A stretch of DNA of 63,014 bases, from the IMG/VR virus record IMGVR_UViG_3300045988_147415; one strand, 5' to 3'. The notes under the pieces are model-generated. The model was not told the origin of the DNA. It made no database searches and saw only the letters and a program-made list of their open reading frames with translations. Both the position numbers and the translations under genes were made by a program. Of this stretch, positions 12,471 to 53,116 are shown in pieces. The number at the start of each line of letters is the position of its first letter. Within the stretch, counting starts at the first letter, position 1. This stretch comes from a virus. Lineage: Duplodnaviria; Heunggongvirae; Uroviricota; Caudoviricetes.

Positions 12471-13412
12471 TTAACTAACAATCCAGTCCGTAGCAACAAC
12501 ATCCTCTGGAGCTAAATCAATCGCATGGATTTTCCCATCCCGGATGGTGCGCCAGTGCTTTCGTGATCCACCTTCGGGCCATACCCATACACCTTCAGGC
12601 CAGGATGCTCGACGGCATACGATTGCATACCCTGTTTTAATCCTCTCTCTCGCGGTATGCAACGACAGGTTTGCCTTTGGACTTTCAGGTACAGGATGGT
12701 GAATGGCCTGAAACAGCCCCATTTTGGGGTGATACCAGCGTTTATTACGTGGTTCTGCCTCCGACATCACCTGCTTAAAGGCTTTCCGGAAGGGGGCCAG
12801 GGCCACAATGGAGCGTCGCGCAAGCAAACCATCTGGAGTTAAAAACTCATGCGTATCGGTGGGAATCCGGAAAGCGTTGACCAGGTTGCGACATTTGGCT
12901 TCAGTCAGGCCACATTTCGCCGCCAGCTGGCGGTAGCCAATGTAGCCTTCCGGAATATTGCCTTTCTTGATTTGCTCGACGGTTTCAGCGACTTCGGACA
13001 CTTGTGCCGATACTTCGGCTACCTGGGCATTAACGGCGTTGATCCGGCGTTCATGCTCAAGATGCATTTGCGCCATTTCAGCCAGGATTTCGGCTTTTGA
13101 TTTTAACTGTACCCGGGCATTCTCCAGTTCGCGCCAGCGGTCCACCAGCCGGGCGGTAAATTCGGGAGAAAGCTGTGCGACGACAATGATACTGTCACGC
13201 TTGCCTTGTTCGCCTTCAAAGATGTAAGCCTTGGAAAATCGACGAGGGCCAACTGATTGTTTATTTTCAATTTCCTCAATTTGAGGAAATTGAATGACAC
13301 CACCTTTAGTTAATACTTCAATGGTACGCTTCACATTATCATGACGCTTACCTACCAGTTCCGCGATCTCAATACTGGTCATTGTCGCTTTTTGAGAGAT
13401 GGACAGATTCAT
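12471..13412 (-). CDS. ant: phage antirepressor (N-terminal Rha-type domain, C-terminal Ant domain), immI-like copy 1
   Basis: TSIEIAELVGKRHDNVKR Rha-type N-terminus; 313 aa; paralog of the 51842..52549 gene; preceded by an icd-like ORF as in P1 immI. Confidence 0.75.
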   Translation of the reverse strand: MNLSISQKATMTSIEIAELVGKRHDNVKRTIEVLTKGGVIQFPQIEEIENKQSVGPRRFSKAYIFEGEQGKRDSIIVVAQLSPEFTARLVDRWRELENARVQLKSKAEILAEMAQMHLEHERRINAVNAQVAEVSAQVSEVAETVEQIKKGNIPEGYIGYRQLAAKCGLTEAKCRNLVNAFRIPTDTHEFLTPDGLLARRSIVALAPFRKAFKQVMSEAEPRNKRWYHPKMGLFQAIHHPVPESPKANLSLHTARERIKTGYAIVCRRASWPEGVWVWPEGGSRKHWRTIRDGKIHAIDLAPEDVVATDWIVS

Positions 13413-13627: not shown

Positions 13628-13689
13628 AATGGCAGCCTCCTTTTGCTAATTTAAGGAGCTACCGCGTGAGGTTCCAATCTCAATGGCGG

Positions 13690-13790
13690 TAGCACTGACT
13701 GGGTTGGAACTACCGGCGCAAAAGGGAACCGGCCTGCCTTTCGGCAGCCCAGCCAGCACTACCATTGATCTCTGAGCTAAACGCTACGTA
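13690..13790 (-). ncRNA. candidate c4-like antisense regulatory RNA (tRNA-like features), immI copy 1
   Basis: Minus-strand transcript carries GUUCCAAC complementary to GAUUGGAACC sites both upstream and about 42 nt before the icd start; a UAGCUCAG...GGUAG D-arm-like segment suggests RNase P-type processing; boundaries approximate. Confidence 0.3.
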
Positions 13791-13811
13791 TGGCTGTGCG
13801 ATGGCATGACA

Positions 13812-13835
13812 CAAAAAAAGACGCTTTCGGCGTCT
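13812..13835 (-). terminator. Rho-independent terminator upstream of the c4-like region
   Basis: Hairpin AGACGC-TTTCG-GCGTCT followed on the minus strand by UUUUUU. Confidence 0.5.
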
Positions 13836-13940
13836 GTGTCGCCTTTTGCATTATCCGGGGTTCCAATCCCGGCACCCGTTTTTCTAAGGTGCCGTAGAAA
13901 TATACCCCACGATAATGCCAGGGCGCAACAGTCAGTATTT

Positions 13941-36798: not shown

Positions 36799-37191
36799 CT
36801 ACCAGCGAGACAAACGAACAACATGTTTCACTTTTGCGATCCACTTTCCGCGATAACTATTGATTACGGCCTGTGCCAGCTTCAAATTGGCTTCAAAATC
36901 AGCCTTACTACCATCAGACTCCACCAGCATTCCTCCATCTATTTCTGGTAAACATAGATAATCCTGCTCAACCTGCAGCGGCATTGATGGCTCTCTGAAT
37001 GGCGTTACTTGCTCTGCTTTCCAGCGAAATCTAACCCTCATCCCCCTGGTGGTCATTACTAGATAGCCTGTTATAGTGCTTTTATGGCCCACATCAGTAC
37101 GCGTGGCATTGCATGACACGATCTTACAGTTAGCGATAGACCACTCCATATTGGTGGCCTGTTGAGTGCTTAATTTGGTAGTCCCGTACAT
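36799..37191 (-). CDS. hypothetical protein
   Basis: 130-aa ORF coupled to the upstream gene. Confidence 0.4.
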   Translation of the reverse strand: MYGTTKLSTQQATNMEWSIANCKIVSCNATRTDVGHKSTITGYLVMTTRGMRVRFRWKAEQVTPFREPSMPLQVEQDYLCLPEIDGGMLVESDGSKADFEANLKLAQAVINSYRGKWIAKVKHVVRLSRW

Positions 37192-37766
37192 CAGAAAGCC
37201 TCCCAGTCAGTCGCGATTATATCCACACCAGTTGCAAACCAGTCTGTCTGCGCCTGTAAATCCCCATTCATCATTACCAGGCGAGGCATCACCATCACAT
37301 CGCACCCTTCCACAATATCGAATGCCTCTTCCGGCAAGAATTCGAAGAGCTTTTCTTTGCTGCCAATGCTGCCACGGAACATCGATATATAGCTCCCTTT
37401 AGGCCATGATGTCCGCCGGGCATCAAGCCCTTTCATCATCCAGTAAAAAGCCGAGGAAAAAGGGATATTCTTTTTGCCAATGATTACATTATTCGCTTCT
37501 GTGTACTTCAGGAACTTAACTAACCTTACCATTGACTCGGATAACGCAACGTATGGCTCATGATTGATTGCTGACACGCTTACACCGTGCAATCCAACGC
37601 TTACCACTGTCATATCGCCGCTCTGTGCGGTTTCGATATTGACGCCTTTGCGAACTAATGAGGCGTAAAGTTCCTCTCGCTTTTGGGTCCAGCGTTCCCG
37701 CTTCCCTATGAAGTCACTCAAAATGAGATCTTCTTCTGCATATGCGTTATCGTTCGCCATTAACAT
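37191..37766 (-). CDS. hypothetical protein with DUF2829-like motif
   Basis: FYWMMKGLDARRTSWPKG resembles the motif in 28882..29544. Confidence 0.45.
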   Translation of the reverse strand: MLMANDNAYAEEDLILSDFIGKRERWTQKREELYASLVRKGVNIETAQSGDMTVVSVGLHGVSVSAINHEPYVALSESMVRLVKFLKYTEANNVIIGKKNIPFSSAFYWMMKGLDARRTSWPKGSYISMFRGSIGSKEKLFEFLPEEAFDIVEGCDVMVMPRLVMMNGDLQAQTDWFATGVDIIATDWEAF

Positions 37767-37974
37767 AACGTCTCCTTTTTACACGCGCGACCATCTCTCG
37801 GTTAAACCGATAGAGATGTCGAAACTTCGTATTAATTAAGGGTTACAGCCTGAGCGGCTATATGATGAATTGAAAGGAGTTGTGGCGGTGGTGCCTCCAC
37901 CTGCCAGGTCAGCCACGCCCGGCGACGACACTTATCAGAACCTCAATGAATGAAAATGGCTTCGTCACGAGCGC

Positions 37975-38040
37975 ATAGCCGCAATTACCACAACGGAAAC
38001 GGCGCTCGCGTTAATTAAACGCCTTTTCCTGTTGTGCGCC
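37975..38040. repeat. hairpin element, copy 0 of a repeated tRNA-trailer module
   Basis: CCACAACGG ... CCTGTTGTG inverted repeat resembling the elements at 38800, 39130 and 39367. Confidence 0.35.
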
Positions 38041-38220
38041 GTACTCTTCCGGCTGTCACACCGAATCGCCAGGATGGTGAGTCCTCGGTCCGACGATATG
38101 AACGGGGCTTGCACATTCCGGCTACCTGGTTTGTTGCCTGAGCTAGGGGAAAAGGTAACCCCTTTAACGTCACCAGACCGCTAACGACGCATGTGCCAGA
38201 CGCCGTGTTACAACCAAATA

Positions 38221-38296
38221 TGGTGGCCCCTACCGGATTTGAACCGGTGACCGTGCGATTATGAGTCGCCAGCTCTAACCACTGAGCTAAAGGGCC
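38221..38296 (-). tRNA. tRNA-Ile (anticodon CAU, ileX-like; Met cannot be excluded)
   Basis: 76-nt cloverleaf GGCCCTTTAGCTCAGTGGTTAGAGC...GGCGACTCATAATCGC...GGTTCAAATCC...GGGGCCACCA, closely resembling E. coli ileX. Confidence 0.8.
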
Positions 38297-38433
38297 AGAT
38301 TACTGTTAATTCCGCTTACGCTTTTTGCCAGAACCGCGTAAGGCTTTTGCCGCTTGCTCGGCCCCATATGCAACCACCAGCAAAAATAAAAATGTCCAAC
38401 CAGGGTTCTTATCGGCAAACGCCCAAAAATTCA

Positions 38434-38667
38434 TCACTTACAGCCACCTTGCATTTCCTTGGATAATTCATTGATTTTAGTGCTCAATAAGTAATCAAAG
38501 TAAAGATAAAACACAAAAGTAACGATAGTGCTTAAAGTGTCTGAAATTGCGTATTTCAGCTCAGGAAGCATGACAAAGCAGACAAATAGCGGAAGAAATA
38601 ACTGCACTATGCACAGGCTCTTCTTCCACAACCATCTATATCTGAAGTCTGACAACAAAAACTCCAT
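38434..38667 (-). CDS. possible small membrane protein inside the tRNA cluster
   Basis: AT-rich ORF with two hydrophobic helices; start ambiguous and RBS weak. Confidence 0.3.
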   Translation of the reverse strand: MEFLLSDFRYRWLWKKSLCIVQLFLPLFVCFVMLPELKYAISDTLSTIVTFVFYLYFDYLLSTKINELSKEMQGGCK

Positions 38668-38799
38668 TGCTTGAAACTTTATTAGGTTGCGGTGCCTGGT
38701 GCCTCCAGGTGACGTTAACCAGTTAACAATTAACGCCGGGATGTTTGACTTAACCACTAAGGAGGATTGTTTTAACTGTTCCGCGTGCGCTTAGCCGCA

Positions 38800-38920
38800 T
38801 TCACCGCAATGGTAAGAGCACTTGGCTGGCTGGGCGGCGATGACGCCTGTACGCATTTGGTGATCCGGTTCTGCTTCCGGCATTCGCTTAATTAGCCAAA
38901 TACTCTTAACGTTGCACTGG
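38800..38920. repeat. hairpin trailer element, copy 1 (immediately 3' of tRNA-Ser)
   Basis: Conserved TCACCGCAATGGTAAGAGCACTTGG paired with CCAAATACTCTTAACGTTGCACTGG about 70 nt away. Confidence 0.4.
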
Positions 38921-39004
38921 CGGAGAGTAATGGAATCGAACCATCATCGCTTGCGCAATGGGACGGTTTTCAAGACCGCTTGAGCACCATGCTCCCTACT
39001 CTCC
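38918..39004 (-). tRNA. tRNA-Ser (anticodon UGA), long variable arm
   Basis: 87 nt; acceptor GGAGAGT/ACTCTCC, anticodon loop CTTGAAA, T-loop TTCGATT, CCA encoded. Confidence 0.75.
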
Positions 39005-39129
39005 AGTGATTGTGGCGACCGGTGCTGATCTCCGGCTTGCGGTTATTTCAGACTCTCACGGGCGTTTAATTGCCCCGCCGAACAGCTCTTTTCCGCAATA
39101 GCTGCAATGTCTTTCGCGCATCAGCCTGC

Positions 39130-39240
39130 GCATTCACCACAATGTTGAGAACACTGGTTGTCACGCTGCAACGCAACATTTATTCGTAGATTGGGATATG
39201 ACCCCGTTACGCCGGTGTTCTCAACGTTGTAGTGCCGGTT
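39130..39240. repeat. hairpin trailer element, copy 2, with a duplicated fragment of the tRNA-Thr 3' end
   Basis: CACAATGTTGAGAACAC ... GTGTTCTCAACGTTGTAG 17-bp inverted repeat followed by GTGCCGGTTACGG. Confidence 0.4.
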
Positions 39241-39366
39241 ACGGTTCCGGCCAGGCCTCTTCCTCAACGGGGTGTTCTCCATACGGACTACCGTTTATTG
39301 GTCGTTCCTGCGGTTTATGTTGTGAAGCCAGATGCTTATCTTCTGGTTGCTTCTAGGAGCTGCACT

Positions 39367-39452
39367 TCATCACAACGGTAAGAGCATTTATGGCTCGCAT
39401 CGCGGGAAAAAGCCCACGGTAGAGAGTCGAACTCTACAAATGCTCTTACCTG
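39367..39452. repeat. hairpin trailer element, copy 3 (immediately 3' of tRNA-Thr)
   Basis: GGTAAGAGCATTT ... AAATGCTCTTACC 13-bp inverted repeat enclosing two internal hairpins; no valid cloverleaf on either strand. Confidence 0.4.
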
Positions 39453-39458
39453 TTGTGT

Positions 39459-39534
39459 TGGTGCCGGTTAACGGGATCGAACCGCTGACCATTCGCTTAC
39501 AAAGCGACTGCTCTACCAACTGAGCTAAACCGGC
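39459..39534 (-). tRNA. tRNA-Thr (anticodon UGU)
   Basis: 76 nt; acceptor GCCGGTT/AACCGGC, D-arm GCTCAGTTGGTAGAGC, anticodon loop TTTGTAA, T-loop TTCGATC, CCA encoded. Confidence 0.8.
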
Positions 39535-39538
39535 AATT

Positions 39539-39625
39539 TGGTGGGGAGTGATGGAGTCGAACCACCCGAGTCGCAATGACAGTAGATTTACAGTCTACCC
39601 CGCTACCCCTACGGACTAACTCCCC
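39539..39625 (-). tRNA. tRNA-Tyr (anticodon GUA), long variable arm
   Basis: 87 nt; anticodon stem-loop GTAGACTGTAAATCTAC as in E. coli tRNA-Tyr; acceptor GGGGAGT/ACTCCCC; CCA encoded. Confidence 0.7.
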
Positions 39626-39630
39626 TAAAT

Positions 39631-39707
39631 TGGCGATGGTGGGTGGATTCGAACCACCGACCGACAGCTTAGAAGGCTGCTGCTCTATCCTACTGAGCTA
39701 CACCATC
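39631..39707 (-). tRNA. tRNA-Arg (anticodon UCU, reads rare AGA)
   Basis: 77 nt; acceptor GATGGTG/CACCATC, anticodon loop CTTCTAA, T-loop TTCGAAT, CCA encoded. Confidence 0.8.
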
Positions 39708-40912
39708 ACTTGCCGGGTACGTCTCCGGCGAGGGCTTCCACCTCCGTATGCTTTTCGGCGCACCGCGCCCTGGCTGCAATTCGGTAACAGGGGATGCACA
39801 ACCCTGGCTTCCAGCGTGATTAGCGCCTTCAGCATGACGGGATATACCCGTTACAAGAGATTTCCCAGGATGCCATTAACCAATGGCTGTTACGCGGGAG
39901 GGACGTAACAGGTAAGGGCGCTGACCAGAAAGACCTGACCCTTCTCATTCATCTGGTTAATCACACCAGCGCCCTTGCCTGTTATGCCTCCCCGTTCCCT
40001 AATACACAGACGGGGACACTCTGCGGTCGATTTTTTGACGGGGGACGACTCATACCCCGTGGCGTCTGGCTTCTTAGGCCGCTACCATCATCAGATCATC
40101 GTTTGCATTTACTTTAATGGTCGGTTTCTAAACCGCCGCAAAGTCGCTAACCATGACGAAAACCCTAAAAAAGCCCACCCGAAGATGGGCAAATACGCTA
40201 CATCTCACACAAGAAAGAAGCCGACTGCCTGAGCTGGATTCACTTTCAAATGCCCGCTGAAAGGGATCACAAGTCGGCTTCTTTCTTGATGCGGCACTCT
40301 CTCCGCCCGTCACCGCTCTGTCTCGGTTGTCGCGTTTGCCACGCCAGCCGTAACGAGGTTTAAAGTCTTTACACGTTTCCATCACTCGACTGCCGTCTGT
40401 GGCTGTTCGTTGCAGCGGGGGTGCCTCCCCCTGGGGATATCCCCGGCCTTACCCCATTCTTTCAAGACACAATGCAAGGCCACATCCGCATAGGTGCATT
40501 ACCGCAACATTAAGGAGACTCAGGGCAAAAGGTAACCGCCACAAAAATCCCTATGCCTCCTTAATGTTGAAGATGTGCATTGATGATTAGATGCAGCATG
40601 TACCGTTACTCTCTGCCGGACCATCATCAATGAACACCTTAAAAAGACCTTCCGTGGCTCAACATGTATTGTCGTTTACTCCGCAAAGTGCTCTCTCTGA
40701 AACCACTTTCCGCACTAAACCTGCTGAACTTTGGCCTGCACGGTGCCAAAGCGTGCTCTTGCATTACTATACATTTCTAACACTTTAATTTGTTAAATGC
40801 TGGTGGGAGAACAATAACCAATAAGTGACTATCAAGCCCAGCAAGCGAAACGTGGGTACCGCCCACCAGCAAGGAAAATTCTATGTTAAGTTATCTTCAC
40901 AATCAATACATT

Positions 40913-40940: not shown

Positions 40941-42149
40941 TTATTTCCCATAAAGATCTTCTACACCCCCATTCTTCTTATCCCATTCGTTCGCCCATAC
41001 CCGGCAAGCGTCAATGATTTCCTGACGACGATCTCCTTGCATGAACGGGATGCTTTCATGGAAACAGCTTGGAATGCAGGCCACACTGAATACAGTATCA
41101 AACTCCGTCTGCTTGATTGCCTCCAGCGTCTCCGGACGCATTTTTAATTCATCGATTGGCGCATCCTTAGAGTCCATAATCCGGCGATATAAGCGCGGAA
41201 AATCCGTCTCCAGGTACGCCATAATTTTATCTGCGAGACATTCGTCTATGTCGGTATTCCAGTCCTTTTCGAAGCCCGGCAGGCGATAGTAAAGCGGCGT
41301 TCCCCATACCGATGGGATCACATCCATCGTTAACAGGCGATTGGTTCTGATTTGTTGATGGTAATTAGCCGTCAGCAGTGCTTCGCCACGCTGCCCAGTT
41401 TCCGCAACCAGGCCGTGTGGATACTCATGGATGTAGGCAATGGCATCCCTTCCATCATACATAAGTGGAAATGTCTCTGGTCTTTGTCCCATGCCACAAG
41501 CACGGTTCAGATCGTGACCAAGCTGTGAGCACTCTCGCTTTAATGTTTCGATAATGCTCTGCGCTGTAGCCAACTTTTTACGCAGTGTGACGCCTTCGCC
41601 TTGATAATCAATGCATTGCTGATTGAGCTTGGTTAAACGCTCTTTTAGTTCCCGGCGCTCTCTTTTCAGCGTGCGGTTATCCTTCTCCGCAACATCCAGC
41701 CGCTTTGTCAGGCTGGGCGGATAGTCTTTTTTGTAACGGTTCAAATCGGCTTCGGCAGATTTACGCAGTGTATTTGCCTGTTCAAGACGCGCTTCCAGAT
41801 TGCCGATCTCATTACGCATATTCGCGGCAAATTGATTAACTGCATCACCCAGGCTTTCAACTGTCGCTGATACGCCTGTGACTTGTGAAAAACGGATCAA
41901 GCCATCATTAACGGCTTGTTGGTATTCCTCAAACTGATCCACCAGCTTATTGTAATCAACTGCCCCATCATCAAGCAGCTTGTTGATTTCCGCCACCAGG
42001 TTATCTGTAGTGGCAATGACACTCTCGTGCAGTCGCTTTGACAGGTCATCACCCGGATTCCGTTTCTGTATAAGAGCGATTTGTGTGCGCAGCGTTTCAA
42101 TTGCTGTCGAGATAATTTCCAGATTAGAAGTATCAGTGTGTTGACTCAT
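40941..42149 (-). CDS. hypothetical protein (N-terminal coiled-coil, C-terminal globular domain)
   Basis: Start set at internal ATG (MSQHTD) because the ORF-track start is GTG; operator motif directly upstream. Confidence 0.5.
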   Translation of the reverse strand: MSQHTDTSNLEIISTAIETLRTQIALIQKRNPGDDLSKRLHESVIATTDNLVAEINKLLDDGAVDYNKLVDQFEEYQQAVNDGLIRFSQVTGVSATVESLGDAVNQFAANMRNEIGNLEARLEQANTLRKSAEADLNRYKKDYPPSLTKRLDVAEKDNRTLKRERRELKERLTKLNQQCIDYQGEGVTLRKKLATAQSIIETLKRECSQLGHDLNRACGMGQRPETFPLMYDGRDAIAYIHEYPHGLVAETGQRGEALLTANYHQQIRTNRLLTMDVIPSVWGTPLYYRLPGFEKDWNTDIDECLADKIMAYLETDFPRLYRRIMDSKDAPIDELKMRPETLEAIKQTEFDTVFSVACIPSCFHESIPFMQGDRRQEIIDACRVWANEWDKKNGGVEDLYGK

Positions 42150-42166
42150 TGCTGTTCCCGTCACCT

Positions 42167-44138: not shown

Positions 44139-47100
44139 TTAGGCCGCATCGGCGATTATTTTACGCAGTTCATCTACCGAGTAACGCGTAGATACCATCC
44201 ATGCAGGACGGTCAAAGTTCACATCAGCAACCGGGTTTGCTTCAAAATTCCAGAAACGCCCGCCAATCTTCTTAATCGCGTCTTTGGCGTTCCGTATTGT
44301 CGAGGAACCTGGTTGGTCGGCAATGAGATAAACCGCGCCAACGTCCTCGCTGACGCTCCACCAGCGCCCGCGAACACGCGCCTTAGCGCGAATCGGCTTA
44401 TCATTAACCACAATGATATAGTCATCATTCGCCGCTTCATCAGCTCTGGCTTCAGCCACTGCCGCCTGCTCTTCTCTTTTGCTTTCAGCCTGCTCAAGCC
44501 TTTCCGCGATCTCTGATTCAGTGGCCCCGCCGTTTTTCAGCGATACATAGTCCTGCCACGTTGCCGATTTGAGCGTATCCGGCAACTCATTCACATAGTC
44601 GCCGTCTTTCAACTCACGGGCGCGGCGGGTAGCCATTTCTACCAGGCGATTAACAGAAACAGCATCAGCAAAATCGTCCTTACTAATGTATTTTTCATCA
44701 AATGCATTGATGACAGCCCCCACCTTAATCCACTGTGCTGCCGGTGATTCCAGGGGGTTATCAGCCTGAACAATGGCGAGTTTCGCTCCATCTACCCCAT
44801 TATTCGCCAGCTGTTCCAATGCCGCCCATCCATCTGCATCACTGAGTGATTTATATTGCTCAAACAATGCATCGCGCCAGGCCACCAGCGCAGAACGTGT
44901 TTTTTCGATCTTCGTCTTAATTTTCGCTATCTTGACCTGATTAAACATCCGTTCAATATCATCGATATTGCTAAAGGCTTTCATCCTGCCCTGGAATAAA
45001 CGGTATGCCAGCACGGTCCTCCAGAATGATTCCAGACCTTCTCCGGACGGTTTGCGGAACAAGCTAAGAATATCTTCAGAAGTGACTTTATTAAGCGAAC
45101 GACCTGACAGACCACGCCCAGCCATCCAGTTTTCGAACTCCTGGGCAACATCATCCATCGTTGCCTGTGCGCCCCATGCCTGCATTCCCTGGATGTAATC
45201 ATACCCATACAATGCCTGGAGGAATCCCTCTCCGTCCACGATATTCAGCGGATTATCACTGGCTTGTATTTTTGCCACTTCACGCTTCAGCGCCTCATTG
45301 TTGATATCAGGGTAAATCCACTGCTCTGGTGCAATATCCGATGTACGCCCGATTTTCTGTCCTATCATGCCATCATAGGTCGATGACAGCGCGATCTGAC
45401 CATCATCGGTGCGATAGGCCCAGTATTTAATACCTGGTTCACCGCCCCATGCTCTACCAGGCTGGCCTGTAGTGACCTTCATTACTCCGTTACGAATAGC
45501 ATCATAGAACTGATCGCGAGTAAGTGACGTTGATAGCTGGTGGCACTGAACACCACGCGCAGCTGTTGCACGCGATTCTGCAACACCCTCTTCAAAAGTT
45601 ACCGCTTCAATCACTGAGTCAAACGGTAATGTTACGATTGACCCCGGTGATCGAGCGTAACGGCTTGCTCTATCCAGCCAGGCGATACGACAGATGTATT
45701 GTGCTTTTTCACCATCAATTTTTTCCACCCGGACAATCGCTGTTGTTTCGCGATCATCAATGACTGCACGGTAATAACTACCTTTATGCAACAGAATGTT
45801 CTTGTCAGTGCGCATATATTCTTGCGGGTTCTGAATAACATCGATGCTGATATCCAGCACACCAGACTTAATAGCGCGTTCCACATCACCACGAGAGCGT
45901 TTCATAATGGTATCCGCGTCTTTTGCCCTGGTGATCGCAAACCGCAGCACCCGCGCACGTTTTCTGTAGCTACTCAACTGCTCAAGCGCGTATTTTTGCC
46001 CATTCCTGTTCGTACCCGCTTTTATCAGGTCGTCAAGATTGCGCTGGTAATACTCTATCTGTTCCATCGCGCTTTTCAGTTCTGTCTCCATCATGCCGAT
46101 ATCTTTTCCGGCGGCGTTTGCCGCTTTCAGGTAGATATCGAGAGCATTGTTGGCCTCGCGCTGTGCTTTCAGTTTCAGACGTTCTTCACGCTCTTGCGCC
46201 TGGCGAGCCATGATTGCGCGGCGTTCTTCCGGGTTTGCCGCCAGCATAATGGCGCGTTCATCAGCATCATCCGCATCACCATTGGCGATCTCTGACATGT
46301 CGGATGTCATCACCATCTTGATCCAGTCTTTCTTACGTTTCAGCGTATCCAGACGGAAGTCGTCGAATGTGCCTTTGCCACAATAGTAGTGAACATTGAC
46401 CTTTTCTTGCGGTGAACCTACGCGCGCACCGCGCCCATTTCGTTGGTCGATACTGGCTGGTGTCCAGGGTAGTGTCAGGTGATGGATATCGGTTGTCCCG
46501 ATGTGCAGGTTAATACCTACTTCAGCCTTCTTGTTACAGATTATGATGCGCGTGCGACCTTCGTTATAGTCGGCGGCAATGCCTTCCATGCCCTCAAGGC
46601 CAGCATCATTTTTAGCTGAGAGATAATCCTCATATTGTGCAAGTTTGCTGTAGTAGGTTTCCCATGCCCCTTCTTTGTATTCACCGTTTTTGTTTGGAGT
46701 AGGTTCGGTCGGCTTATTCACCTTCTTCAGCTTGATGCCGCCAGCCTGGCTAACTGTCGTCGCATTGATAATGCCAATCTCCTGCTCCGGCATTTGCAGT
46801 GCACTGGCGATAATACGGCGAAGCTTCTGGTGCTGGGCTTTTTCATCAATAAAGACGATCTGCTTACCGTTCTTCAGACCTTCACGAAGATTTTCGATCA
46901 GCGCGGCATACTTCGGCGGGATGGGGTGCGATACCTGCTGCATATCAATACCGGCAGCCGCAATGGCCTTCAGTATTTCAGCTTCCAGTTCAATGCTGGC
47001 ACGTATTTCAACATGCGTCGGATGTTCACTAAAAGCGGTCTTCACTACCTTGCTGGTACGCGTACTGACCAGCCCGCCAGCGCCGTCTTCCTCGGCCTCA

Positions 47101-52773: not shown

Positions 52774-52829
52774 AGTTACGGCCTCACTAACAGGTTTAAC
52801 AACCTGCTACCCGCTGTCAAACAGGTGGC

Positions 52830-52920
52830 AGGACGTGACAGGGTTGACAGACTGGCGTTAGTGAAACCAGCAGGCCGAAGCCTCCCCATCACGCCCCACC
52901 ATAATTCGGGCGTAACGCGG
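52830..52920 (-). ncRNA. candidate c4-like antisense regulatory RNA, immI copy 2
   Basis: CUGUCAAC element complementary to UUGACAGC sites located about 41 nt before the icd start and again about 170 nt upstream; same geometry as copy 1 with a different sequence; boundaries approximate. Confidence 0.3.
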
Positions 52921-53116
52921 TTTACGGACACAAAAATACCGCAATATCGGAAATCTGCGGTTGTCCGCACTAACATTCAGGCTGTCAAACCTGGTCGCAG
53001 AATTTGCTACGACGGCATGAATATAAGCCTGAAAACATGGAAGATCAACTAAAAATTTCAGCAATGGATGACTTCAGTCGATGATGCAGATCATACATTC
53101 CGATTTAGAAACAGCA

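Follow-up and report, generated by a model that had tools for sequence, protein, structure and literature searches.

Long hairpins coupled to tRNA-shaped domains in the tRNA cluster of a P1/D6-like phage-plasmid: a widespread phage RNA module related to the STnc100 family and, probably, to RNase III processing stems

The array in the window and its P1 counterpart

The viral record IMGVR_UViG_3300045988_147415 (Caudoviricetes), analysed here as one stretch of 63,014 nucleotides and called the window below, carries on its minus strand a cluster of five tRNA genes interspersed with copies of a long hairpin (LH) and of a tRNA-shaped domain (SL). The features are listed in Table 1 in the order of the minus strand. 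The best reading of the region is a polycistronic, largely untranslated RNA array, in which the tRNAs alternate with two-part non-coding modules. A 2.3-kb stretch has 99.4% identity to the Escherichia coli plasmid pKOr024_2 and 93% identity to phage D6, and aligns in pieces, at 88–89% identity, to P1 and P7. Judged by this similarity, the window is a P1/D6-like phage-plasmid.

Table 1. Features of the array and the adjacent genes (coordinates of the window)
Feature	Coordinates	Strand	Support and remarks
PmgS-like gene	40941..42164	minus	
LH-1, divergent arms CAACAUUAAGGAG / CUCCUUAAUGUUG	40502..40571	minus	read from sequence
SL-1, type 2 (STnc100-like)	40409..40508	minus	fold recovers the architecture
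dicF-like region	40173..40230	minus	terminator scan; homologous P1 stretch annotated 'dicF-like region'
LH0, palindromic variant	39896..39993	minus	repeat search; fold z = -5.5; in P1 too
tRNA-Arg (UCU)	39631..39707	minus	ARAGORN; Rfam tRNA 72.1 bits
tRNA-Tyr (GUA), long variable arm	39539..39625	minus	ARAGORN; Rfam tRNA 41.9 bits
tRNA-Thr (UGU)	39459..39534	minus	ARAGORN; Rfam 67.2 bits
LH-A, canonical	39371..39457	minus	fold -43.1 kcal/mol, z = -7.65
SL-A, degenerate	39226..39376	minus	3' end GCCGG-AACCGUAA-CCGGC-ACUACAAC, overlaps the LH-B 5' arm
LH-B, 23-bp stem	39135..39234	minus	inverted repeat 87% complementary; z = -4.9
SL-B, type 1, complementary loops GCUGA / UCAGC	39009..39143	minus	fold; family-wide loop complementarity and covariation
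tRNA-Ser (UGA)	38918..39004	minus	ARAGORN; Rfam via the tRNA-Sec model only, 44.6 bits
LH-C	38804..38917	minus	starts 1 nt past the tRNA-Ser CCA
SL-C, type 2, best STnc100-like copy	38686..38810	minus	Rfam STnc100 39.4 bits
CAU tRNA, Ile2 type, P1 trnI homologue	38221..38296	minus	ARAGORN; Rfam 66 bits
LH-D, 15-nt interior	37989..38036	minus	z = -4.4; breakpoint cluster at 38030
SL-D, type 2	37879..37994	minus	fold; 113 nt upstream of the Tad2-like gene
Tad2-like anti-Thoeris gene	37191..37766	minus	PF11195 match, 39 bits

The tRNA genes had been proposed in the initial annotation as Arg-UCU, Tyr, Thr, Ser and Ile-CAU on the minus strand, and ARAGORN and Rfam bear out all five. Four of them score 41.9–72.1 bits against RF00005 (gathering score 29); tRNA-Ser is accepted from ARAGORN and is also annotated in the RefSeq record of a near-identical plasmid. 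The CAU tRNA is Met according to ARAGORN, Ile in RefSeq (in the plasmid copy with 99.4% identity) and Ile2 in the case of the P1 homologue.

The original P1 annotation shows the homologous stretch of P1 as the long leader of the ban operon, which is under C1 control; it lies between the ban promoter and ban itself, in the order promoter and operator, 'dicF-like region', tRNA-Asn, tRNA-Thr, tciA/B/C, tRNA-Ile2, ban. The window has the same locus and flanks as the P1 tRNA cluster (AF234172, annotation of Lobocka et al. 2004), and tRNA-Thr and tRNA-Ile2 are common to both. However, P1 has three tRNAs (Asn, Thr, Ile2) and the window five, since Arg-UCU and Tyr replace Asn and Ser is extra. LH0, LH-A, LH-B, LH-C, SL-A and SL-C are found in P1 too, but the interiors of LH-A and LH-C differ, and at the place of ban the window has an additional LH-D/SL-D pair and the Tad2-like gene (tad2). 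The tRNA cluster is, then, a known P1 feature that carries here a new gene set.

The gene of the late-promoter activator Lpa lies on the minus strand further downstream of the array. Within the array, the terminator scan finds a single strong intrinsic terminator, that of the dicF-like region (40190–40173). A promoter-like site is seen at 40906–40878 (minus strand), after the PmgS-like gene; the dicF-like terminator separates it from the tRNAs.

The segments with tRNA-Arg and tRNA-Tyr (39707–39539) and with tRNA-Ser plus the ~70-nt element that follows it (39004–38827) show about 84% identity to the tRNA cluster of the rV5-like phages (Vequintavirus; L200 of our set of loci, 513–985). This similarity suggests that lytic myoviruses and P1-like phage-plasmids have exchanged tRNA modules. 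The rV5-like phage HeinrichReichert has, in addition, an odd 99-nt tRNA-like gene (L200, 984–1082), for which ARAGORN gives a four-base anticodon (atcc) and which is tRNA-Lys in the record.

The initial annotation described four copies of an inverted repeat (13–17 bp, with an interior of 50–70 nt), positioned directly 3' of tRNA genes. Four hairpins, LH-A to LH-D, indeed exist at these places. They are far more stable than shuffled sequences (fold z from -3.2 to -7.7), and the arm motifs that they share are commoner than in any of 100 shuffles. The dimensions have to be revised, as the stems are of 19–23 bp with a bulge and the interiors of 15–72 nt. The position directly 3' of a tRNA is correct for LH-A, which starts 1 nt past the CCA of tRNA-Thr, and for LH-C, but LH-B comes after another structured domain, and LH-D about 185 nt after the CAU tRNA. 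Further, there are two more copies, LH0 and LH-1. The former is devoid of the bulged A, has an extension GGAGG/CCUCC and is not followed by an SL; the latter has the architecture of the LH upstream of dicF in the E. coli K-12 prophage Qin. LH-A is the canonical copy, with no mismatches of the arms to the family consensus. The interior of LH-C is homologous to the core of the lambda SL and to the element after tRNA-Ser of the rV5-like phages, and the 5' arm of LH-D is the exact point where homology to P1 breaks. A T-arm-like hairpin, GTAGAG-TTCGACT-CTCTAC, had been ascribed to copy 3; it is present and lies inside LH-A, the copy numbers having been zero-based.

Several other elements recur as well. 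The minus-strand stretch between the CAU tRNA and LH-D (38200–38040), which reads GGUAGCCGGAAUGUGCAAGCC ... GGUGUGACAGCCGGAAGAG, is seen again immediately 5' of LH in viral contigs that are unrelated (L071, L147) and is probably another conserved RNA module. The motif GUAACGGGKUCAUAUCCC is found in the interior of LH-B (39213–39190), in the spacer before tRNA-Arg (39852–39832) and in the interior of the P1 LH-C (L002, 2487–2510). In other phages, GCCGUUAGCUCCACGAAACGGAGC and GGUGUGAUUAAUAAUGGGC recur as modules preceding LH.

The first six bases of the SL domain are the final six of the LH 3' arm; the domain begins as GUUGYGGUGAAU and ends with the complementary CACCRCAAC. In SL-1 the closing helix is GUUGCGGU / GCUGCAAC, with an AAU linker and a 3' hairpin GGGGG-AGGCA-CCCCC abutting the closing strand. 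SL-A is probably a decayed copy, because its closing helix is absent from the minimum-free-energy fold. Just 5' of LH-B in the transcript sense there is a fragment, CCGTAACCGGCAC (39262–39238), which does resemble the 3' end of tRNA-Thr, as had been noticed. The module duplication deduced from it is not supported: the fragment is better read as the T-like hairpin and the 3' closing strand of SL-A, with its end doubling as the 5' arm of LH-B. A gap of 4 nt separates the end of SL-B from the 5' end of tRNA-Ser, and SL-C is nearly identical to the dicF–dicB spacer of K-12 Qin.

Conservation, covariation and relatives of the modules

The family was assembled by two pattern scans of viral contigs, from which about 140 of the loci returned (L005–L181) were taken, mostly contigs of about 40–50 kb; the analysis rests on these scans and on hand-anchored alignments. 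It comprises 127 different LH copies from phages of enterobacteria, whose arms hardly vary (CACAAC-A-GGUAAGAGCAYUG ... CARUGCUCUUNCC-GUUGUG), the bulged A being present in all copies but one (126/127). Pair 9 of the stem is U.U or U-A; at pair 17, 98 of the 127 copies have a U.G wobble. Over all copies, the 19-bp stem contains 163 G.U pairs versus 13 A.C pairs. Since a G.U pair on this strand is an A.C pair on the opposite one, the fold is under selection on the strand that carries the tRNAs.

The interiors of the hairpins show a different picture: they vary from 15 to 200 nt and form 51 unrelated families. Their orientation is fixed, with 303 same-orientation matches versus two inverted ones, both from one artefactual long match. 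Inversion of the interior by recombination between the arms was considered as well and was not seen in the 127 copies.

Conserved arms with exchangeable contents could also mean that the elements act on DNA, as recombination linkers or a miniature mobile element, the RNA structure being incidental. Breakpoints of homology among the P1-like loci accumulate at the arms of LH and the ends of SL, and the divergence between P1 and the window falls exactly at LH-D. The middles of SL-B and SL-C occur in several versions among P1-like plasmids, the plasmids differ in the gene cassette after SL-C, with at least five alternatives, and CACAAC stands at both ends of the unit. However, any conserved island is expected to gather breakpoints, and the excess of G.U pairs is strand-specific, the bulge is invariant, the non-canonical sites are conserved, and compensatory changes are seen both in the helices and between the loops (see below). 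Inverted arms are also a feature of miniature inverted-repeat transposable elements, but there the likeness ends, given the unrelated interiors and their fixed orientation. The arm ends ACACAAC ... GTTGTGG depart from the attC core RYYYAAC ... GTTRRRY in one and two positions, as compared by eye; neither an integron integrase nor a transposase was noticed in the annotated stretches of lambda, P1 and Qin near the copies, where no systematic search was made. We consider a primary role in DNA improbable. The CACAAC flanking repeats are part of RNA helices, and the use of the conserved arms as homology anchors for swapping interiors and gene cassettes is read as a side effect, not the primary function.

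Outside the window, LH follows terminators, other RNA modules or tRNAs, and its constant partner is the 3' domain: GUGAAU stands directly after the hairpin in 87 of 127 copies. The elements are thus not tRNA trailers as such, the reading suggested from the window. A conserved promoter just upstream of LH was among the candidates and was not found, the upstream context being variable (tR', tRNA 3' ends, other modules).

The commonest SL (type 1) consists of a closing helix of 7–9 bp, AAU, a 5-bp hairpin GCGCA-GGCUGA-UGCGC, a variable middle, and a 5-bp hairpin GCCGG-AGAUCAGCA-CCGGC. The latter abuts the 3' closing strand, as the T arm abuts the acceptor strand in tRNA. The domain is tRNA-shaped: its D-like and T-like hairpins flank a variable middle that takes the position of the anticodon arm. 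In one variant, the D arm (GCUC-AAUGGC-GAGC) and the T arm (GCCGG-UUCGAUU-CCGGC) are canonical. This variant has a weak match to transfer-messenger RNA, far under the threshold (20 bits, gathering score 47), and in the window bacterial Y RNA (YrlA) gives no match at E ≤ 10. Two further resemblances were rejected. A CCA-like 3' end is not a general feature, ACCA being present in two of 70 copies, and the hammerhead-like CUGAUGA of the 5' hairpin is a part of the variable hairpin and its loop, with no Rfam match.

The base of LH (CACAAC/GUUGUG) is paired in about 98% of cells in a tally of per-pair counts, and the SL closing helix GUUGUGGUG/CACCACAAC in 93%; such percentages are inflated for three helices, because the sequences of the covariation alignment were chosen for pairing there. 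As the GUUGUG strand is common to both, the basal helices of LH and SL are mutually exclusive. Moreover, neighbours in a tandem array can have a strand in common, 3' in an SL and 5' in the LH that follows; SL-A and LH-B are an example.

The comparison across related phages, envisaged in the initial annotation, reveals compensatory changes. In the alignment of 35 distinct units, restricted to the conserved parts, 14 pairs have changes on both sides, versus 3.0 in shuffles, and none of 500 shuffles reaches this number; with slid controls the signal collapses. Complementarity also exists between the D-like and the T-like loop (GCUGA/UCAGC), which vary jointly (GUCGA/UCGAC, ACUGA/UCAGU, UGCUG/CAGCA). 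The loop–loop helix, which was not a selection criterion, is paired in 99.4% and has two covarying pairs. The 3' stem of SL-C, SL-D and SL-1 covaries too, CCUGG/CCAGG, GGUGG/CCACC and GGGGG/CCCCC, with CCGGG/CCCGG in STnc100.

A tRNA shape might be expected if the elements were decayed tRNA genes or functionless leftovers of rearrangements in the tRNA cluster. Perfect T arms occur in eight of 127 LH interiors, where 0.075 are expected; the fragment before LH-B is similar to the 3' end of tRNA-Thr; one SL variant has both canonical arms; and SL-A looks degenerate. On the other hand, no LH or SL of the window is called by ARAGORN or matches the Rfam tRNA model at E ≤ 10, and the same is true of 24 other loci, hence they do not score as ordinary tRNA pseudogenes. 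Decay would also leave unexplained why the arms and SL ends are near base-identical across phages of the Enterobacterales while everything between them changes, why the helices are maintained by covariation, and why the unit keeps a fixed place after tR' in lambdoid late operons. We regard decay as a very improbable origin of the family. The decayed tRNAs suggested initially are borne out in part, by the tRNA shape of the domain after each hairpin and the T-arm relics of some interiors.

The LH/SL junction is found across the Enterobacterales (Serratia, Klebsiella, Pantoea, Citrobacter, Kluyvera, Rouxiella, Kosakonia) in a scan with one genome per species. By a strict megablast search, 495 of 5426 complete E. 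coli genomes (about 9%) carry it, never under an annotated feature. In 18 loci (150 kb), neither LH nor the commonest SL type is covered by an Rfam family at the gathering score. In the window, scanned both with the gathering threshold and at E ≤ 10, Rfam yields no match for LH and none to a ribozyme, Y RNA, GOLLD or ROOL. Searches with the arm sequences, the structure after tR' and the P1 tRNA region retrieved no description of the family from the searchable literature, whose coverage did not extend to one possibly relevant 1994 paper on the dicF surroundings.

The type-2 SL is related to STnc100 (RF02076). SL-C matches this model with 39.4 bits (E = 1.7e-6), short of the gathering score (47) and at model positions 31–147 only, and the type-2 SL of Qin scores 34.4 bits; SL-B, SL-D and SL-1 have no STnc100 match in Rfam. 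Direct comparison shows that the full STnc100 of phage 933W has the same core as SL-C: a closing helix, the AAU linker, a 5' hairpin, a variable middle, and a 3' hairpin with the AGGCA loop abutting the closing strand. All these features are present in SL-C, SL-D and SL-1. Both STnc100/PasD of the lambdoid prophages and the type-2 SL reside in late or accessory phage regions near tRNAs. However, STnc100 has a 30-nt 5' part and a terminator, whereas in the window the 5' part is replaced by LH, and the terminator scan finds none after SL-B, SL-C, SL-D or SL-1. Type-1 SL, with its kissing loops, differs further in having no Rfam match at all.

This relationship makes it plausible that the products are stand-alone small RNAs (sRNAs), that is, that the modules are mainly genes for trans-acting Hfq-associated sRNAs of the STnc100/PasD class, the variable parts being the seeds and the conserved parts the scaffold. 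STnc100 and PasD have been detected as prophage sRNAs that depend on Hfq and have many partners in RIL-seq (PMC8550237; bioRxiv 10.64898/2026.05.13.724894). A lambdoid late leader on contig L100 (2206–3232, minus strand) has the order tR', LH, SL (the variant with canonical D and T arms), STnc100, STnc100, so that full STnc100 stands in tandem with an LH–SL unit, and the 51 families of interiors suit a conserved scaffold with a variable payload. But the copies in the window have neither the terminator nor the U tail that all described Pas sRNAs carry. Further, SL-B abuts a tRNA, type-2 SLs are situated about 30 nt before the start codons of unrelated genes (dicB, tciA; 113 nt in the case of tad2), and the unit is co-oriented with the next long open reading frame (ORF) in 54 of 70 cases (with the previous one in 46 of 81), which looks like a 5'-leader role. 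As a general explanation of the family, we hold sRNA genes to be unlikely.

L100 has an isrK/C4 pair as well, 3.5 kb from its late-leader array of related RNA modules. In the window there are two separate genes for C4 antisense RNA on the minus strand, at 13682–13892 and 52821–53026 (76.7 and 68.8 bits). One adjoins an isrK-like RNA and the other adjoins the c4 target a1/b1, which makes two immunity-type antisense RNA loci.

The modules appear to have affected the annotation of proteins. The P1 ORFs plp and upl (L002 1923–2492) are annotated antisense over LH-A, SL-A and LH-B. In the corresponding part of the window (39110–39485), two in-frame stops interrupt plp, a counterpart of upl is absent, and both ORFs are probably not genes. 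The ORF at 38434–38757 (minus strand, 107 amino acids) has a sole family match, PHROG 24763, to residues 2–28, which are the translation of SL-C. If there is a real ORF here, it probably starts at an internal AUG (MEFLL...), and PHROG 24763 may have been built on a translated RNA structure.

Counterparts in phage lambda and in the Qin prophage

In lambda (NC_001416), LH occupies positions 44789–44864, 5 nt after the 6S/tR' terminator, and is followed by SL and then by gene S. The LH–SL span is 44787–44959 (L199, 988–1160); annotation is limited there to the hypothetical orf-64, which lies further upstream. The lambda SL is closed by a covarying helix, GUUGUGCUG/CAGCACAAC. LH–SL is situated at the same place behind the late promoters of the lambda, 21 and 82 types. 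The core of the lambda SL, about 70 nt long, recurs in the LH-C interior of the window and after tRNA-Ser in the virulent rV5-like phages, and in its three settings it is closed by three different helices.

The stability of the hairpins, and the choice of GUUGUG between an upstream and a downstream partner strand, which is formally attenuator-like, would suit transcription terminators or attenuators that set the flow to downstream genes. The lambdoid unit, however, lies downstream of tR', in transcripts of terminator-resistant polymerase. No U tract follows any LH or SL, the LH 3' arms run into GUGAAU, and the terminator scan is blank at all these sites. A role in termination, which the initial annotation had offered as an option, is therefore hardly credible.

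The dicBF operon of Qin has the order ydfC, LH, SL, DicF, type-2 SL, dicB, the modules occupying L202 13177–13585, that is, positions 1,649,176–1,649,584 of E. coli K-12 MG1655. The bulge and the mismatch of the Qin LH are at the family positions. The order of modules, LH, SL, DicF, type-2 SL, gene, is the same as in the LH–SL arrays. The difference is that in the window tRNAs join the array and DicF is represented by a 'dicF-like' region only, whereas Qin has DicF itself.

For Qin, RNase III has been implicated in published work. RNase III is required for the 190-nt DicF species and generates its 5' end by cleavage (bioRxiv 10.1101/2023.04.14.536235, citing Faubladier et al. 1990). Counted by length, 190 nt back from the DicF 3' end is about position 13246 of L202, inside the 3' arm of the Qin LH (13239–13258). 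The 3' end of the 72-nt DicF is likewise ascribed to RNase III (PMC5069750), and falls, again by length, at the 5' edge of the closing helix of the Qin type-2 SL. Taken together, the literature and this mapping by length indicate that RNase III acts at the homologous Qin modules. In the portions available, the Qin work treats one processing site for one sRNA and contains no description of a family, of SL as a partner, of the strand in common or of a connection with tRNA clusters.

A processing model and its implications

Stems or tRNA shapes standing between the functional RNAs of one transcript are well known: T7 R1.1, the stems of rRNA operons and the mitochondrial 'tRNA punctuation'. Classical processing stems and tRNA punctuation are cleavage signals that also set the stability of the products. 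The LH stems, with 19–23 bp (about two turns), one bulge and one mismatch site, have the shape of an RNase III substrate, and we conclude that the LH and SL modules are a widespread variant of the STnc100 family and, probably, of RNase III processing stems. They differ from the classical RNase III stems in that LH brackets a variable payload and shares a strand with a fused tRNA-shaped domain, and in that the sequence of the arms, not only their shape, is conserved across unrelated phages. Phage tRNA clusters also contain other structured non-coding RNAs, GOLLD, ROOL and RNAs C and D of T4, which sometimes enclose tRNA-like parts; compared with these, the LH–SL units have no likeness in sequence or model, no Rfam match having been found, and they are far smaller (about 200–330 nt) and are repeated.

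The structures exist and are conserved in a widespread family; they are read on the tRNA-sense strand, they covary, and the pairing of LH excludes that of SL. With a probability of about 0.55, we propose that the LH–SL modules are RNA punctuation that cuts and refolds a polycistronic tRNA/sRNA/mRNA transcript. In this model, LH would fold first during transcription, holding GUUGUG. RNase III would then cut the LH stem, freeing the upstream tRNA or other RNA with a short trailer and releasing the LH interior. GUUGUG could now re-pair with the downstream CACCACAAC, closing the SL, and the downstream RNA, be it an sRNA, the next tRNA or an mRNA such as that of tciA, dicB or tad2, would gain a structured, tRNA-shaped 5' end. 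The model fits the shared strand, the strand-specific wobbles, the distance of 1 nt between the CCA of two tRNAs and LH, the end of SL-B at the RNase P site of tRNA-Ser, the position of type-2 SLs before start codons, and the co-orientation with ORFs. The 3-kb structured untranslated leader might, in addition, be a poor Rho substrate. Among the roles suggested in the initial annotation, processing signals and small RNAs are the best supported.

Several points weigh against the punctuation model. That RNA of this phage is cleaved, refolds and is stabilised is inferred, and the RNase III positions in Qin were deduced from the fragment lengths (190 and 72 nt), not from published coordinates. The SLs folded alone barely beat shuffles (z from -0.9 to -2.0), and SL-A has no closure in its minimum-free-energy fold. 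Tolerance of G.T on one strand would also be compatible with folded single-stranded DNA, the covariation of the kissing loops comes from few independent events, and the pairing percentages carry the selection bias mentioned above. Processing by RNase P in the manner of a tRNA is not directly supported, because ACCA follows SL in so few copies. No promoter was found from the terminator at 40190–40173 to tRNA-Arg, and this terminator lies upstream of the tRNAs. Finally, the sequence conservation of the arms exceeds the known need of RNase III, which hints at a possible second partner of the arms.

One more reading goes beyond processing. LH–SL may constitute a distinct, unnamed modular class of phage RNA, in which the stem and the tRNA mimic form a scaffold presenting interchangeable payloads as decoys or guides. 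For instance, the payloads or the tRNA mimic would titrate host tRNA-targeting defence nucleases, or enzymes of tRNA processing or modification, in lytic growth. This idea is speculative and we give it little weight; if true, it would explain why the modules travel with phage tRNAs and adjoin anti-defence genes such as tad2.

Returning to RNA punctuation, the finding means that one unannotated RNA module is present in three much-studied systems, the late leader of lambda, the ban operon of P1 and the dicBF operon of K-12, and its role is directly testable in lambda and K-12. Recognition of the family also corrects annotation, since translated RNA structures seem to underlie at least one PHROG family as well as plp and upl of P1. 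The family explains the shape of STnc100/PasD, whose core is tRNA-shaped, and it explains why the region is a hotspot for swaps of tRNAs and of accessory and anti-defence genes. It could also explain how phage tRNAs, neighbouring sRNAs and mRNAs are excised from long untranslated transcripts.

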